Origin: an uncultured Dehalococcoidia bacterium
GTDB taxonomy: Bacteria > Chloroflexota > Dehalococcoidia > Lucifugimonadales > UBA3495
Direction: 5' to 3'
DNA: 36,845 nucleotides
Assembly (NCBI GenBank): GCA_950072105.1
Contig: CATMOE010000037.1
Coordinates: 1 to 36,845, forward strand
Under the pieces are notes generated by a model. It was not told where the DNA came from and searched no databases. It was given only the letters and a program-made list of their open reading frames with translations. A program made the position numbers and the translations under genes. Of the stretch, positions 16,616-28,686 are shown in pieces. Each line of letters opens with the position of its first letter. Within the stretch, counting starts at the first letter, position 1.

Positions 16616-17521
16616 TTAATCGCCGGACTGGGCGACGGCTGCCCGGCCGATGCCCAATTCGTTCAACCTTTTCTGCATCATGGTGCGCTGCTCCGGGGTG
16701 ATGGGCTGACCGGGCGGGCGCGGGGCGCCGCAATCAATGCCAAGTCTCTCGCTTAAGATTGCCTTGGTGCCGGCGTGCAGGCCGATGCTCCGGACCAGAT
16801 CGGTGACCTGGCTGGCTTTCTCTTGGGCTGCCTCCGCCCGGTGGATATCACCGTCGTTGTAGGCGTTCCAGATCTCGACCCAAAGCTCGGGAGCCACGTT
16901 GGGAGGACCGTCCACGCATCCCGACGCGCCGATAGTTAGCGCCGGCAGCATGAGCATGGCGTTCCCGACGAGGCATTGCAGTCCCATGTTGGAGAAGGCG
17001 CGAACGTTGGCGAAGGTCACGGCCGAGTGCTTCAGCCCCTTCAGTTGGGGCACGCCGTCCTGAATCTTCTGCATCATCTCCGGCGTGATCTCCACACCGG
17101 TGGCCTGGGGCAGGTTGTACACGAACAGCGGTAGGTTGGCGGCGGCGCCCACGGCTTTGTAGTGCTCCACGATGGCTTCGTCGCTCTGCCGGTAGAAGAA
17201 GGGAGGCACGCAGCAGATCGCCTCAACACCGGACTTGGCGGCGTGTTCGGCCAACTTGACGGCCCGCGCCGTCGTGGCCGCGCCGACGTGCATTATGTTC
17301 TCGATCCTGCCTCGCGACTGGTCGGACGCGATCTCGGCGATGCGCATGTTTTCTTCGTCCTCCAGAAGCACGCTCTCACCGGTGCCTCCGGCTACCCAGA
17401 ATCCATGCACTCCGGCCTGGATGTTGAACTCGATGACCTCCCGAAGCGCCGCCTCATTGAGCTCGCCACCAGCGGTCATGGGAGTGATTAACGCGGGATA
17501 TACGCCCCTGAAACCAGCCAT
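16616..17521 (-). CDS. Dihydrodipicolinate synthase / N-acetylneuraminate lyase family aldolase
   Basis: GVYPALITP, GGTGE, PPFFY, YNLP, LKHS (Schiff-base Lys); RBS AGGAGG. Confidence 0.92.
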   Translation of the reverse strand: MAGFRGVYPALITPMTAGGELNEAALREVIEFNIQAGVHGFWVAGGTGESVLLEDEENMRIAEIASDQSRGRIENIMHVGAATTARAVKLAEHAAKSGVEAICCVPPFFYRQSDEAIVEHYKAVGAAANLPLFVYNLPQATGVEITPEMMQKIQDGVPQLKGLKHSAVTFANVRAFSNMGLQCLVGNAMLMLPALTIGASGCVDGPPNVAPELWVEIWNAYNDGDIHRAEAAQEKASQVTDLVRSIGLHAGTKAILSERLGIDCGAPRPPGQPITPEQRTMMQKRLNELGIGRAAVAQSGD

Positions 17522-17662
17522 TGTTTTCCTCCTGAACGGTTTGCGTAGAGTGTATCACGCCGGTGCGATGGTACGAGCGTAAATCGTTTAGCGTAGAGCA
17601 AGGTGCTAGAATGGAGCCCGGAGAACTTAAAAAACTCAGTACTCAGTATGGGAGTGATGAGA

Positions 17663-18415
17663 ATGCCTGATCCTAAAGTGTATTTCCGCCCTGGTTGATT
17701 CACCTGCGGCCGCACGAAAGAGTTTCTTTCGTCCCAAGGTATCGAGTACGTAGACGGCGATGTCGAACACGATCCGGAATCCATGGAAGAACTGCTGAAG
17801 CTGGGTATCAAAGCGGTCCCGGTGACGATCTGGGGAGACGAGGTAATAATCGGGTTCAACCCCAAGGAGCTCGCTCGCGTATTCAAGCTGAATAGTGAAG
17901 TATCTCAGGTGTCCCCGCCCGCCATGATCGAGAAATACGAGACGGTGTTGGTGGCGGCCGGCCGCGCGGCGCGTCAACTCCCGGACGAGTATCTGGGATG
18001 GAATTGTCCCGAGCGCAAGCGTACGCTCGGCCAATTTACTTTCCACATCTTCGATAGGCCGGACAGAGCCCTGAACGCTTACGAAACTGGCCACTACAAC
18101 CTCGATGACCGAGGCCGCCACGCTGAAGATGTACTGGACAAGGTAAGATTCGAGGAGATCGCAGTCTACGGCGAGGATGTTCTCAGCCGGGTGAAACACG
18201 GCTTAACGGGTCCGGCCCAGATGGACTTGGAAAAGGTCCTCGAGACCTACATGGGACGGAAGACCACTGCTGAGTTGATGGACTTGGCCCTGGGGCACTC
18301 CGTGCACCACCTGAAGCAACTGTACGAGTACATGTCGCAGGCAGGGATGGAGCCGGTGGACAAGTTGGAAGACGCTGACTTCCAAGGGGTGGCGGTTCCG
18401 ACTGAGTTGTTCTAA
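17663..18415 (+). CDS. Predicted selenoprotein: glutaredoxin/NrdH-like UxxC domain fused to a DinB-like domain (250 aa, Sec12)
   Basis: RBS GGAG 17651 and ATG 17663: MPDPKVYFRPG-U(TGA 17696)-FTC-GRTKEFLSSQGIEY...AVPVT...IGFNP, in frame with ORF 17783-18415. The C-terminal part has RTL...FHI and HSVHH. Confidence 0.88.
17714..17732 (+). promoter_or_regulatory. Bacterial SECIS-like hairpin
   Basis: ACGAAAGA-GTT-TCTTTCGT; the stem starts 15 nt after the UGA, the G-first loop 23 nt after it. Possible lower stem ACCT/AGGT. Confidence 0.78.
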
Positions 18416-18464
18416 TAATCTTCGAACCGAACCGAGTCAATCCGAGCAGTAGACGGGTCGGACT

Positions 18465-19795
18465 ATGACTTCGAATGCAGACGGTCAGTCCGCATCGAAT
18501 GACGCGTCTGAAATCTCTTGGGAGAAACTGGGCATCACGCCGTTGATGCGGGCTGCCCGTGCGGGCGATCTGGGGCCGTGCGGTCAGCTCTTGAACTCGG
18601 GCGATTCAGTGGATACCGCCGACGAGGCTGGTTGGACCGCGCGTATGGGCGCCGCGGCAGAAGGGCACGAGCAGATCGTTCAACTCTTGATCGACCACGG
18701 CGAGAACGTAGACGCTGAATCTTTCGATACCGCCACGGCACTGCATGCGGCTACCGCCAATGGCGTGCCGGTATAGTGCGCCTGCTTTTGGGCGCAGAGG
18801 CTGAATGTAGATCCGGCATGAGCGGGATAGGTCCCTTCGGCGGGGGCGGCTGGTGGGACTCGATAAAATTGGCCGCCAATAACGGTGATGGGGAGATCTT
18901 GCAGTTGTTGGCCGACGCCGGGGCCAAGCTGGTGGACCACGATGCTGCCTTGTATCTCTACCGGGCGTACGCCGTGATGGGCCGGGATGTCAAATTGTTC
19001 CACCGCGGTAAGACCGAGACCTACCAAAGCCACGATGACGCATTCTATCATCCCGACATCTTCACCGTAGGTGAGCCATTCCAGATTCCGGATGGAACAC
19101 CGCCATGCGTACTACGATTGATCAACGCATACAGCGGTGGCTGTGGTGTCCCAGTCACCGGTGACCGGGACACCACGGCGCCCGTCGCCTTTTTTGGTAC
19201 CAGGCCTGCCGACGGCAGCATCGCTTCATTCGAGGCCAAGGGTCAGGGTAAACCGGATGAAGACCCGAATGGATACGGGGCTGATCGGGCCGAGCACGTG
19301 AGCCTGGGAGGCTGGAGGGTCCACGGTTATACCTTGGCCTTGGAAGAACTGCTACACCAGGACACCCCCGGATCTCAAGAACCCCCGGCTCCGTTGGAAC
19401 GCCTCCTCCAAGTTGCTGCCGGTGTGGGCAAGTTGGAGATTGTGCGGGAGTTGCTCCGGCGGGGCGCCGTACCACCAAGAGGTTTTCAGGACCTCATAGA
19501 AACGGTTGTGGACCCGCACTGGAAGATTCCAGATGCGACCAGTATCAAACGCCTGCTGTTAACAAGAATCGCCGGTCCAGAAATTTTTCTGGAGCCAGTT
19601 GAACGGTTGGAGCTATCTCCTAGAACCCTGAACTGTTTGAAGAGGGGTCAGGTTACCGACTTGGGTCAAGTTTTTGACATGTCTGACGAAGAACTACTCC
19701 AGATTCGCAACTTTGGGGAACAGTCGTTGGAGGAGTTGAAAATTCAACTGGAACGTCTGATTTATGCAAACGACGAGATACCTGCTAACAACTGA
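18465..19795 (+). pseudogene. Ankyrin-repeat protein with C-terminal RNA polymerase alpha-CTD domain, 1-nt frameshift near 18765
   Basis: Ankyrin motifs TPLM.AA..G, GH..IV.LL..G, TALH.A..NG continue as AGIVRLLL in another frame. The tail LELSPRTLNCLKR...ELLQIRNFGEQSL.EL is alpha-CTD-like. Confidence 0.8.
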
Positions 19796-25779: not shown

Positions 25780-28443
25780 CTAAACCACTCCCGCTTCCGC
25801 CAGGTAAGCCAACTCCGTCCGTTGCAGCCCTAGCTCCTGGCAATAGATCTCCACGTTGTGCTCTCCGATAAGAGGGGCCCGGCTGGATATCCGCCAGGGG
25901 GAGCCGTTGTAGATGCCGGCCGCGCCGGGGTATCTGAAGCTTCGGCCCAGTTCGGGATGGTCCACGTCCACCCAAAATCCTCGATCGTTCAGGTGTCCTT
26001 CATCCAGCAGCTCATCGGGAGTCCGCACCGCTCCCCAGTTGAACCCCCGTTCCTGGCCGCCATGGGCCACCTCATCCCTGGTTAAGTTGCTGACGAAATT
26101 AATCAACAATTCGTTGATGTGGGCGGAGCTATCTGAGAACACTTTGGGGTCCTTGTAGCGTTCGTCCAGGAGGTCTCCCGCCAAGCCATGGCTGTCCATC
26201 CATTCGGTCAGAACCGAAAACTGGCGGAACGAAACCCGGGCAGCGCCGGCGTTCACGTACTTACCGTCTTTGCAGCGGAATTGGGTGGGAACAGTCCGGG
26301 TGGCCCCCGCGTGGCGGCCGGTTAGGCGTTGTACTACCTCGCCTCGATAAATGTAGGTGTTTACGTGCATCTCGGTGGTGAGGGCGCAGGCGTCGTGCAC
26401 CGAAGCGTCGATGTACTGGCCTCGCCTGGAGCCGGTGCGGGATACCAGGGCGGCGATTATCGCCATGTAGGCATAGTGGCTACCGGTATGCCAGGCGTTG
26501 CCGCCGCCGGGAGCGATGGGAATATCGCCCGCAACCTCGCCGGTATCATAACCGCAGCAGCCCATTTGCCCGCCCGCCGCCATGTGAAGCAAATCACTGC
26601 TCAAAAAGTCCCGCCATGGCCCGGTTTGGCCGAAGGGGGTTAGCGAGCACATGATCAGCCGAGGGTTCGATTCGGCGAGCTTCTCGTATCCAAGGTCCAG
26701 TGAAGACATGTAACCTGGAGCAGACGTCTCTACGATGACGTCGGCCGTGGCGGCCAGTCGCCGGAACAGGTCCCGTCCATCCTCGGTCTCCAGGTTGAGG
26801 GTGATTCCCAGTTTCGACGTGTTGTAGTGCCAGAACGAAAGGCTGCGCTCCCGGTGGGGAATATCGTCCAAGAACGGCCCGACGATCCGGGTGGATTCGC
26901 CTCCCGTGGGCTCAATCTTGATGACATTGGCCCCAAGATCGGCCATCAACTTGCCGCAGAACTGCCCCTTTTCATCGGCCAACTCCAGAACCCGCAAGCC
27001 GGATAAGGGGCCGGGTTGAGGATCAGCGTCGATGGTCTCTTTCGGCTTTTCGCCATTTTGGAATGCGGCGCCCGGGCCCGTAAATGGGATAGGCCCGGCG
27101 TTAATCATGTCGTCCATGTACGGATAGCGGTCCATGGTCTTCGGCCAGAAGGTGCCGTCTTCGTACCCGGATACGAACGCCTCGTGGTTGAGACCCAACA
27201 TGCCCTCGTAGATCTCCTGGTTGTGCTGGCCGATGAGGGGAGCGGCATGGAAGATCTGAGCCGGAGTCTCGGACAGCTTGAAGGGAGCATTTTGGAACTT
27301 GCGCAGCCCCAGTTCCGGGTGGTCCAACTCCTTATATATCTCCCGGTGGCGGAGTTGCGGGTCGTGCTCCACCCTATTCTCGGTACTTTGCACCGGCATC
27401 GCGGGAACGCCCGCCGCCTGGCACTTCTCCATCAAGTCGTATTTCTCAAGGGTTTGGGCCCACTCTTGGATACCCTGATCCAGTTCTTCTTGGTGTTCGA
27501 GCCGTCCCCCAAGGGTGGCGAACTTGGGCGAAGCCGCCCACTGGGGAGAACCCATCACCCCCACCAAGCGCCGCCATTCCTCCTCGGAGAAGCAGGTGAT
27601 GGCGCACCAGTCGTTGTAGCCGCCGCCACTTGTCCGGTAGGCGTTGTGTGGGGCCGTCGTGGGTCCACGGTAATTGTTGAGCATGGGAGTTCCGGGCCAA
27701 TGGGCGCGGTTGCCCGGTGGAAATCCTTCCCGTTGCGATGGCCGCCCATTGACCGAAGCGTCCAGCATCGCTGATCCGTTCAGGGTAGCGCCCATGATCA
27801 TCTGGGAAAGGTCTACGTGCTGGCCCTGGCCGGTCATGTTGCGCCGGTATAGAGAAGTCATGGTGGAAAATGCGATGTACATGCCGCCGGTGTCGTCCAA
27901 GTAGGACCAGCCCCAGCCCGCCGGGGGCTCGCCGGGCAGTCCCGATAGGAAGGTTAAACCGCAGAATGCCTGGGCGATGGGTCCCATGGTGAGGTAGTTG
28001 CTGTGCCGCCCGGTATGGCCGAACCCGGATTGGGAGACGTAGACGATGTCCGGCTTGAGCTTGCACATCTCGTCGTAACCCAGGCCCCAACTCTTCAGTG
28101 CCCGGGCGCTGAAGTTCTCGACAACTACGTCGGATACCGAGATGAGCCTTTTAATTAAGTCCAGGCCCCGTTCGGAGCGCAGATTGACGGTGATTGCCTT
28201 CTTGTTGGCGTTGGTATCGTTGAAGTTGGACGAGGTGTTGAGGGTTTGAGTAACGCCGGGCGGTGTCGGGCCGCTGGTCCGGCCCCGCTCGTTCAGCGGC
28301 CACTCCACCTTTATGACCTCGGCTCCCAGAGCGCCCAGCCAGCGCGTGGCCCAAGGGCCTGCCCTTACCCAAGTAAAATCCACGACCCGTATGCCCGCTA
28401 AGGCCTTCGGTGTGGCCGCGATCTGCTCTTGGGTTAGGGCCAT
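25780..28443 (-). CDS. Fused double-domain CoA-transferase family III (887 aa)
   Basis: Two CaiB/BaiF domains (LAGIRVVD..., PLSGLRVLE...). The first has YLDDTGG; the second lacks the Asp. RBS AAGGAGG supports ATG 28443. Confidence 0.93.
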   Translation of the reverse strand: MALTQEQIAATPKALAGIRVVDFTWVRAGPWATRWLGALGAEVIKVEWPLNERGRTSGPTPPGVTQTLNTSSNFNDTNANKKAITVNLRSERGLDLIKRLISVSDVVVENFSARALKSWGLGYDEMCKLKPDIVYVSQSGFGHTGRHSNYLTMGPIAQAFCGLTFLSGLPGEPPAGWGWSYLDDTGGMYIAFSTMTSLYRRNMTGQGQHVDLSQMIMGATLNGSAMLDASVNGRPSQREGFPPGNRAHWPGTPMLNNYRGPTTAPHNAYRTSGGGYNDWCAITCFSEEEWRRLVGVMGSPQWAASPKFATLGGRLEHQEELDQGIQEWAQTLEKYDLMEKCQAAGVPAMPVQSTENRVEHDPQLRHREIYKELDHPELGLRKFQNAPFKLSETPAQIFHAAPLIGQHNQEIYEGMLGLNHEAFVSGYEDGTFWPKTMDRYPYMDDMINAGPIPFTGPGAAFQNGEKPKETIDADPQPGPLSGLRVLELADEKGQFCGKLMADLGANVIKIEPTGGESTRIVGPFLDDIPHRERSLSFWHYNTSKLGITLNLETEDGRDLFRRLAATADVIVETSAPGYMSSLDLGYEKLAESNPRLIMCSLTPFGQTGPWRDFLSSDLLHMAAGGQMGCCGYDTGEVAGDIPIAPGGGNAWHTGSHYAYMAIIAALVSRTGSRRGQYIDASVHDACALTTEMHVNTYIYRGEVVQRLTGRHAGATRTVPTQFRCKDGKYVNAGAARVSFRQFSVLTEWMDSHGLAGDLLDERYKDPKVFSDSSAHINELLINFVSNLTRDEVAHGGQERGFNWGAVRTPDELLDEGHLNDRGFWVDVDHPELGRSFRYPGAAGIYNGSPWRISSRAPLIGEHNVEIYCQELGLQRTELAYLAEAGVV

Positions 28444-28512
28444 TGTTCCCTCCTTTGGGTTCAGCTTCCGTGTACTAGTAACATTTATAGATGACTTGGA
28501 TGCATGAACCAG

Positions 28513-28619
28513 CACCCCTTCTCTAACTCTCCCCCGTAAAGGGGCGAGGCCAAATCCCTTCCCCCTTGACGGGGGAAGGTTAGAGCCTGCCCTGAGCGCA
28601 GACGAAGGGATGGGGGTGA
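28513..28619. repeat. Inverted doublet of REP-like palindromes with a 25-bp nested insert
   Basis: Unit 1 28513-28549; inverted unit 2 28555-28619, interrupted by AGCCTGCCCTGAGCGCAGACGAAGG (28584-28608) relative to the copy at 12493-12530. Confidence 0.85.
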
Positions 28620-28686
28620 TTCGCATCCATCACAATTAACAGGGTGCTGTACTAGGCTATGTTCATGACAGCCCGGCGTGAGCTTG

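Follow-up and report, generated by a model that had tools for sequence, protein, structure and literature searches.

The window analysed here is a stretch of 36,845 nucleotides from an uncultured Dehalococcoidia bacterium (assembly GCA_950072105.1, contig CATMOE010000037.1, forward strand). Its subject is a plus-strand gene at 17663–18415 in which an in-frame TGA very probably specifies selenocysteine (Sec, U). The frame runs from an ATG at 17663–17665 to a TAA at 18413–18415, and the TGA at 17696–17698, codon 12, is its sole internal in-frame stop. With that TGA read as U, the product has 250 residues and begins MPDPKVYFRPG-U-FTC-GRTKEFL. Further on are AVP (P53), IGFNP, FHIF (H128) and GHSVHH (H212, H215 and H216). 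An earlier reading of the letters on their own (the sequence-only reading) had proposed an upstream extension of 40 codons to the ATG, a TGA exactly at the first Cys of a glutaredoxin (Grx) motif, a cis-Pro in AVP followed by IGFNP, and a His...HxxxH pattern. All are in the sequence, the frame 17663–18415 being open except for the one TGA. The features of the gene and its decoding are as follows.

17663..18415, plus strand: full coding sequence (CDS) of the probable Grx-DinB selenoprotein, 250 codons and TAA; conserved at full length in 39 loci, with an AlphaFold2 (AF2) model at pLDDT 92.9 and pTM 0.91
17663..17665, plus strand: start codon ATG; RNA contigs start at 17658, 17663 and 17679
17696..17698, plus strand: TGA, very probably Sec (U12), first position of U-F-T-C; TGA in 39/39 loci, Cys in 39/39 fetched distant homologues
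17714..17732, plus strand: hairpin resembling a selenocysteine insertion sequence (SECIS), arms 17714–17721 and 17725–17732, loop GTT 17722–17724; at the same place in 39 loci
17783..18415, plus strand: table-11 open reading frame (ORF), cut short, M41 to the stop, 210 aa; from the ORF list, M41 not conserved as Met

The table-11 start at 17783 is exactly 40 codons 3′ of the ATG at 17663, and the alignment has L, V or A in relatives at the position of M41. A word-indexed search of 5.8 billion proteins gave 112 homologues, most of them 199–221 aa long. They are short because Sec-form genes have been called as truncated at the TGA. That annotation would truncate the gene had been anticipated, and each of the 112 covers at most 88% of the read-through protein. 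Database copies of the Sec form are named only ‘DinB family protein’, and every one of them, being cut at the TGA, loses the presumed catalytic residue. In the ESM Atlas the table-11 part (17783–18412) meets generic DinB_2 clusters only, with scores of at most 0.85, which is no more than a lead.

Conservation of the TGA and its cysteine counterpart

At identities ranging from 95% to 30%, the TGA occupies the first position of the redox motif in all 39 loci that have an intact N-terminus, and the 11 codons upstream of it are conserved with it in the same 39. They comprise the window gene, its paralogue in the same genome (L042), 8 further loci from genomes and 29 from metagenomes. Three of the 10 genome loci come from species-representative genomes. 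The other 7 are full-length places in a 401-genome sample of the same phylum, the window itself and the second copy in its genome included, and each of these 7 has exactly one in-frame TGA. The motifs at the TGA in the 10 are PGUFTC, PGUFSC, AGUSSC, PGUSSC and PGUHSC, and the start codon lies 10–16 codons upstream of the Sec codon in every one. The metagenome scan, for which a narrower alignment (A2) was used and not the 47-sequence alignment (A1) described below, brought in 38 more loci; 9 are cut by contig ends or are partial matches, and the remaining 29 of 29 have TGA here. 

More distant homologues have cysteine at this place. An exhaustive phmmer search against 1.84 billion representatives yielded 1196 proteins at E ≤0.001, and from its best 150 matches 39 full-length proteins, with a match starting at query residue 7 or earlier, were fetched. 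They are 245–276 aa long, plus one of 721 aa (P0214), and each of the 39 carries Cys at the two motif positions, with WQPGCSSCLKTKEFL as the typical sequence. The expectation that homologues would align Cys or Sec at position 12 is thus borne out on both sides, by TGA in the loci and by Cys in the distant full-length proteins. Nor was TGC or TGT, which the sequence-only reading had named as grounds for giving up the idea, present in the one DNA run and three RNA runs compared. The split between Sec and Cys marks the residue doing the chemistry.

Alignment A1 consists of 38 Cys forms (all but the 721-aa P0214) and 9 Sec forms. Its invariant columns are C/U12, C15, P53, G198 and H216; G11, K19, L44, G48, H128, H212, Q219 and P246 are kept in at least 90% of the sequences. 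Two short fragments were fetched as well. The one that is 47% identical has Cys at position 12, and the one that is 66% identical (P0124, 92 aa) has W there, in RPGWFTC, which is probably the TGA as read by a gene caller under another genetic code.

The second Grx-DinB selenoprotein gene of the same genome (G000:C13:52690-53442, in L042:1498-2259) encodes 253 aa, 36% identical to the window protein. Its motif is PGUFSC, a hairpin of its own follows the TGA, and the gene is preceded by one for an amidohydrolase.

Capacity of the genome to decode UGA as selenocysteine

The host genome assembly has 164 contigs and is 92% complete, with 6% contamination. It was searched for the Sec machinery, as the sequence-only reading had suggested, and the whole set was found: selD at 385 bits, selA at 550 bits, selB at 352 bits and tRNA-Sec at 66 bits, each above its curated cut-off, with ARAGORN also reporting a tRNA-SeC of anticodon tca. 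[The selD gene of this genome (L001:1471-2560, G000:C60) itself has one in-frame TGA, in the motif ...HCAGUAGK....] TGA is also an ordinary stop here. It terminates 2 of the 16 window genes, and in three relatives (L025, L026 and L030) it is the terminal stop of this same gene, the internal TGA being present as well. Its reading is therefore context-dependent, as for Sec.

A constrained hairpin 3′ of the TGA

Bacterial SECIS elements are stem-loops shortly 3′ of the UGA with a G in the apical loop. The hairpin in the window gene starts 18 nt past the first base of the TGA and has an 8-bp stem (nt 19–26 paired to 30–37) capped by the apical loop GUU. It recurs at the same place in 39/39 loci. 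Across the alignment of these hairpins 83% of the cells are paired, compared with 37–62% when the partner is slid, and the consensus fold energy is small. Rfam, searched over 17550–17900, gave only two chance snoRNA-like matches with E >0.9, and Rfam has no bacterial SECIS model that could match.

As the hairpin overlaps the conserved peptide TKEFLS, it was tested in three ways: by codons, by the Cys forms and by the paralogue clade. Among 37 distinct CDS the codons under the hairpin are near-fixed, with ACG for T18 in 34/34, AAA for K19 in 31/34, GAG for E20 in 34/34, CTT for L22 in 34/37 and TCG for S23 in 35/35. The normalised codon entropies of these five columns are 0, 0.43, 0, 0.19 and 0 (mean 0.12), against 0.44–1.0 (mean 0.86) for the 55 other columns with a conserved degenerate residue. 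The synonymous constraint is confined to the hairpin (Mann-Whitney p 1.2e-4, 5 versus 55 columns). Three of the four Cys-form genes taken from plasmid records use varied codons for the same TKEFL peptide, and a stem of 7–8 bp is absent from all four. In the paralogue clade (L042, L072 and L073) the peptide is different and other hairpins stand at the same place.

Expression and transcript ends

The stretch 17400–18600 is present whole and near-identical in 13 DNA runs from 10 studies, the source possibly among them, and six metatranscriptome runs from six studies contain 66–85% of it. Three RNA runs and one DNA run were read in detail. RNA contigs from three metatranscriptome studies cover 17658–18600 with no differences, 17663–18600 with one (at 17869) and 17679–18036 with none. 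The loose letters ahead of each are presumably sequencing adapter. These contigs cross 17696–17698, so the mRNA spans the TGA and the 11 codons upstream of it; RNA contigs of two further relatives also include their N-terminal codons. DNA carry-over is an unlikely source of the RNA contigs. No RNA contig covers 17564–17645, which the DNA run does cover, and the contigs of the divergent upstream gene end at 17525–17532.

17533..17657, no strand assigned: divergent intergenic region without RNA coverage; RNA contigs stop at 17525–17532 and start at 17658–17679, and the DNA run covers it

This intergenic region probably contains both promoters, though a scan for promoters and terminators detected neither a consensus sigma-70 site ahead of 17663 nor an intrinsic terminator 3′ of the gene. 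The contig ends, which cannot prove a start, are a weak hint that the mRNA is leaderless or has a short leader, its 5′ end being at or just before the ATG. The ribosome binding site of the sequence-only reading is accordingly in doubt: GGGAG is present at 17650–17654, but it is perhaps outside the transcript because the RNA contigs start at 17658, 17663 and 17679. Between contig ends and start codons there are about 4–11 nt for the minus-strand DHDPS-family gene and 0–5 nt for the gene under study. The short or absent leaders at both divergent genes are hints of leaderless or very short-leader mRNAs in this organism.

Two domains, glutaredoxin and DinB

The read-through protein is made up of the following parts.

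17663..17887, plus strand: glutaredoxin/NrdH-like domain, residues 1–75, with U12, C15 and the cis-Pro P53 (17819–17821); Pfam PF00462 and structure 7c10
17906..18370, plus strand: DinB/YfiT four-helix bundle, residues 82–236; profile match to 6iz2 and structural matches
18044..18046, 18296..18298 and 18308..18310, plus strand: His triad, H128, H212 and H216; conserved in the alignment
18371..18412, plus strand: C-terminal tail, residues 237–250, with P246, which is kept in at least 90% of sequences

Both folds had been proposed from motifs, and each is supported by sequence profiles and by structure. The Pfam Glutaredoxin model (PF00462) scores 37.2 bits against a cut-off of 22.9, and the family profile, compared with solved chains, matches the Grx/NrdH chain 7c10 with E 3.2e-21 and the DinB/YfiT chain 6iz2 with E 1e-6. 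The AF2 model was made from a 47-row alignment. In a structure search with it, residues 1–75 match cGrx1, BC3987 and NrdH (Z 13.0–13.4, rmsd 1.4–2.0), and residues 81–240 match seven DinB structures over 141–147 residues (Z 13–15.2), the top ones being 2hkv (15.2), 6iz2 (14.7) and YfiT 1rxq (13.4). The same C-terminal region also matches OvsA/EgtB/SenA, with Z 10.5–11.7. Among the structure-search matches no solved chain has both domains, and no NCBIfam model is passed by the protein. DinB_2 and DinB are above their cut-offs in the paralogue (44.3 and 27.8 bits), which also has a faint MDMPI_N match, and DinB_2 is above its cut-off in 3 of 7 Cys homologues. The C-terminal tail probably packs against helix 1 of the Grx domain, since the equivalent tail of a Cys homologue is among the residues of the predicted interface described next.

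Predicted interface and a candidate composite active site

The contact between the domains was explored with a Cys homologue (P0136), which was split into residues 1–82 and 88–252, the two parts being folded as separate chains with Zn and each having its own 38-row alignment. The halves reach an ipSAE of 0.90, against 0.23 for the best control. The ipSAE mark is one reached by 116 of 157 solved complexes and by 2 of 215 mismatched pairs, and these counts apply only approximately here since custom alignments were supplied and the ligand was included. The runs agree in at least 90% of contacts, with partner pLDDT of at least 89. H212, Q215 and H216 make the tightest predicted contacts, all to the residue that follows the first Cys. 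Next come those of R208 to S15 (the third residue of CxxC), of Q219 to G12, which immediately precedes the first Cys, and of the P246 tail to helix 1. Carried over to the window protein, the predicted interface would comprise F8–G11, F13–R17, K19, E20 and V52 on the Grx side and C115–R120, T195–G198, H212, H215, H216, Q219 and A244–F250 on the DinB side. Nearly all family-conserved residues are in the predicted interface, as a composite active site would predict.

On this modelling it is reasonably probable that the U-x-x-C motif and the His triad form one composite selenol/metal active site. A more specific arrangement, in which U12 would be a direct or second-shell partner of the DinB metal in a His3-plus-selenolate centre within the four-helix bundle, is put forward tentatively. 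Were it so, the enzyme would itself supply the (seleno)thiol cofactor, replacing mycothiol, bacillithiol or glutathione. Marine Chloroflexota, in which the queries used found no BshC, GshB or MshC, could then act on electrophilic organic matter by thiol-transferase or reductive chemistry that needs no diffusible thiol, and the DinB superfamily would gain its first Sec-dependent member, with a new type of selenium-metal site.

In the mechanism envisaged, SelB and Sec-tRNA(Sec) would read the UGA at 17696–17698 as Sec, guided by the hairpin 18–36 nt downstream. In the finished protein the U12 selenolate would occupy the place that the mycothiol or bacillithiol sulfur has in DinB-family thiol transferases and would attack an electrophilic or oxidised substrate bound at the metal. 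C15 would then resolve the adduct, giving an intramolecular Se–S bond and releasing the reduced product, and the thioredoxin system would probably reduce this bond again. Overall, the enzyme would act as a metal-assisted two-electron reductase or transferase that has its (seleno)thiol built in. This particular sequence of attack by U12, resolution by C15 and Se–S recycling is a doubtful part of the proposal. Two thioredoxin-reductase-like genes in the genome score 340 and 334.5 bits, just below the cut-off of 343.45. BshC and GshB were not found in single-marker searches of the 92%-complete genome; MshC appears there only far below its cut-off, and its best match is probably a Cys-tRNA ligase. 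These results fit a built-in thiol without proving that low-molecular-weight thiols are absent.

Relation to known proteins

The combination of a Sec-glutaredoxin with a DinB metal domain is new, though both parts are of known kinds. For the redoxin the nearest relative is cGrx1 of Clostridium oremlandii (7c10/7c12), which has the same fold and the same place for Sec (Z 13.4, rmsd 1.4 Å, 75/75 residues, 32% identity). cGrx1 is free-standing, has about 80 residues and reduces a separate partner, MsrA, whereas the window protein has its redoxin fused to a 170-residue DinB metal domain and its family has the motif U-F-T-C or U-S-S-C. Described as a natural selenoprotein, cGrx1 has the motif U/C-P-x-C, and its structure was determined on the Cys form (PMC7642778).

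The second domain resembles the DinB thiol transferases and isomerases in its four-helix bundle and three-His site, the His triad being conserved in the present family. Z is 12.6 to 8f5v (the Zn-containing mycothiol S-transferase of M. tuberculosis, MST), 10.7 to 5wk0 (S. aureus BstA), 13.4 to 1rxq (B. subtilis YfiT) and 12.2 to 2nsg (mycothiol-dependent maleylpyruvate isomerase, MDMPI). In the DinB/YfiT thiol transferases and isomerases the thiol sulfur works at the metal. MST, BstA, YfiT and MDMPI use a diffusible thiol (mycothiol or bacillithiol) and have neither a redoxin domain nor Sec; here, by contrast, a protein-borne selenol and a resolving Cys are predicted at the site. None of the sequence models for MST (PF04978), BstA or MDMPI is above its cut-off for the window protein.

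The same layout is present in the Cys-type Grx-DinB proteins of Proteobacteria, for example WP_162571355.1 (Variovorax sp. SRS16) and WP_207446294.1 (Roseomonas marmotae). They share the two-domain arrangement (Pfam Glutaredoxin plus DinB_2), the length of 245–276 aa and the conserved residues, with 23–30% full-length identity, and are annotated ‘glutaredoxin domain-containing protein’ or ‘DinB family protein’. They differ in having Cys at the Sec position, full annotation and no hairpin. The Grx-DinB family is widespread. 

Two other affiliations were tried and rejected. Canonical glutathione S-transferases (GST) also have a thioredoxin-fold domain followed by a helical domain, with a thiol site at the interface, and the whole length superimposes loosely on them (Z 9–10, rmsd 4–6 Å). 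However, the helical domain here is a DinB bundle with a putative metal site and not GST_C. There is no GST_C match, Foldseek gives TM 0.25–0.35 with rmsd 11–16 Å, and the protein is an analogue of GST by layout, not a member. The GST-like detoxifying or catabolic function suggested in the sequence-only reading is conjectural. The UXX-star families (NF041212, NF041211, NF047338 and NF041114) have a related Grx-like domain, but the score of 48.3 bits to NF041212 is under its cut-off of 66, the other families score lower, and the curated cut-offs of 66–100 bits are all missed. By their names, UXX-star proteins have Sec three residues before the C-terminal stop; here it is residue 12, with 238 residues following.

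Table 1 of a May 2026 catalogue of 119 prokaryotic selenoprotein families has no Grx-DinB or DinB entry, and includes Glutaredoxin (Grx, PF00462, UxxC), UXX-star families and Trx7/PDZ (PMC13188914). The ‘Grx-like, UxxC’ class of the GOS study, of 42 reads, may or may not include the Grx-DinB family (PMC2398784). Among the papers listed in a literature search, judged by title and abstract for the fusion, none deals with a DinB protein that contains Sec or is fused to Grx, or with Cys-type Grx-DinB proteins. Most DinB members are without a known substrate, and the fusion is a natural experiment linking a (seleno)redoxin to the DinB metal site. The enzyme could reveal a DinB role in organisms without the classic low-molecular-weight thiols, and it would mean that a major bacterial group of the deep ocean has a further metabolic need for selenium.

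[A separate Grx fusion family occurs in other Chloroflexota genomes, with Sec in L034 and L035 (TPTUPWC) and Cys in L038–L041 (TPTCPWC). By Pfam its Cys form L039 is Glutaredoxin plus PDZ, and its Sec forms have a hairpin after the TGA. Table 1 of PMC13188914 includes a Trx7/PDZ selenoprotein with CxxU, which is possibly of this family.]

Weighing the interpretation

The evidence points with high confidence to TGA 17696–17698 being decoded as selenocysteine, in a real, expressed and mis-annotated selenoprotein gene. The whole explanation, a SelB-decoded two-domain Grx-DinB selenoprotein with a composite site, is the favoured one and is considered probable, with much less assurance than its first part. 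Several points count against it. Selenium incorporation at the TGA is deduced from sequence evidence. The peptide that the hairpin overlaps, TKEFLS, is itself conserved, and the 71 nt around the TGA fold with a stability no greater than that of shuffled sequences (z 0.18). As the hairpin hardly varies, covariation gives a weak signal: two pairs have double changes, and the score is matched by 2 of 500 shuffles, a control that relatedness alone can beat. It is too sparse to use, and therefore the case for the hairpin rests on the synonymous-site test. The window protein is below the gathering cut-offs of DinB (PF05163, 18.3 versus 23) and DinB_2 (PF12867, 15.6 versus 24.8). The interface prediction used a homologue that shares only 27% identity with the window protein, and halves of what is naturally one chain; the first Cys is not among the named interface residues, and the position of Zn was not scored. 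The incompleteness of the genome and the use of single markers for BshC and GshB weaken the argument from thiols. The neighbourhood is not conserved, and therefore no pathway supports the proposed chemistry.

Three alternatives concern the TGA itself. Conservation of the 11 upstream codons, the TGA and C15 in 39/39 loci, at identities as low as 30%, is hard to reconcile with an ordinary stop that would leave a 210-residue DinB protein from M41 with a partial Grx stub and reduce the upstream codons to noise or a leader peptide. The table-11 call and all 112 database homologues agree with an ordinary stop, and TGA is used as one elsewhere in the window. However, relatives have L, V or A in place of M41, where a start would also remove strand 1 and helix 1 of the confidently predicted Grx fold, the Cys homologues are full length, and the RNA contigs begin at about 17658–17663 and not near 17783. 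An ordinary stop is very improbable. Still less credit is given to recoding of the TGA to Trp, Gly or Cys by a suppressor tRNA or an alternative genetic code. The W of the 66%-identical fragment P0124 could be cited for it, though it probably reflects the gene caller's code. Against it, TGA ends 2 of the 16 window genes as well as this gene in L025, L026 and L030, the aligned homologue residue is always Cys, the counterpart of Sec, and a complete Sec system is accompanied by a constrained downstream hairpin. Least likely of all, and close to negligible, is that the TGA arose through faulty sequencing or assembly, or that a Cys codon mutated recently and left a pseudogene. TGA is one base from TGC or TGT, and the assembly is in 164 contigs with 6% contamination, but the same TGA is in 38 other loci from independent assemblies, the DNA run and the RNA contigs of three studies have no other letter there, and the downstream frame is intact and conserved at the protein level.

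The remaining alternatives accept the selenoprotein and concern its chemistry. The Grx domain might be a general (seleno)thiol-disulfide reductase, for instance one that de-thiolates proteins, with the DinB domain serving only target recognition and having no metal catalysis. UxxC with a resolving Cys is a classic dithiol-exchange motif, and cGrx1, the closest solved Grx relative and a natural selenoprotein, reduces a partner enzyme (PMC7642778). This is nonetheless thought rather unlikely: the three His are kept across Sec and Cys forms (H216 invariant, H128 and H212 in at least 90%), and the triad is in the predicted interface beside CxxC, which would be expected more of a catalytic metal than of passive docking. 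An activity with no net redox change, that of a thiol-independent isomerase or lyase like MDMPI in which Sec adds reversibly to a ring-cleavage double bond, is less likely again. An invariant C15 is unnecessary for a pure addition-elimination isomerase, no isomerase family model is above its cut-off, and the neighbourhood is not conserved. What speaks for it is the likeness of the DinB domain to MDMPI (2nsg, Z 12.2) together with the faint MDMPI_N match of the paralogue, and the setting of the window gene and some Cys homologues amid catabolic genes (VOC dioxygenase-like, dienelactone hydrolase, CoA transferases, enoyl-CoA hydratases and MmgE/PrpD, the last as a neighbour and in the fusion P0214).

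Gene neighbourhood and other observations

Flanked by a divergent DHDPS-family gene (minus strand, start 17521) and an ankyrin-repeat gene, the window gene stands on its own. Surrounding genes of the window encode enoyl-CoA hydratases, family III CoA transferases, a two-domain VOC protein and a dienelactone hydrolase. The neighbours of relatives differ, with Mfd upstream in 3 loci, a GMC oxidoreductase adjacent in 3 and ABC permeases nearby in 3. Cys forms on proteobacterial megaplasmids (14 records) are in varied catabolic clusters: isochorismatase-family with AtzG-like/amidase genes; MaoC, CoA-transferase, acyl-CoA dehydrogenase and MmgE/PrpD genes; or tannase. A specific pathway, sought in the neighbourhood, was rejected since the neighbours are not conserved among relatives.

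The 721-aa homologue P0214 is a three-part fusion in which the MmgE/PrpD N- and C-terminal domains are followed by Glutaredoxin and then DinB_2. An MmgE/PrpD gene is also near the Variovorax Cys homologue (L082). Together, fusion and neighbour make a link to dicarboxylate or itaconate-type metabolism possible.

On the minus strand of the window, 25780–28626 is a 948-aa ORF with two CoA-transferase family III domains, and a similarly large ‘CoA transferase’ (2.6 kb) is near the Variovorax Cys-type Grx-DinB gene (L082). At 18465–19795 the ankyrin-repeat ORF (18465–18776) is followed directly, in another frame, by a 339-aa ORF that still resembles ankyrin at its start and closes with an RNA polymerase alpha C-terminal domain (alphaCTD, PF03118). 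A frameshift may have split a single gene here, or the product may be an unusual Ank-alphaCTD protein. Two relatives (L025 and L026) have ORFs of other lengths at the ankyrin position.

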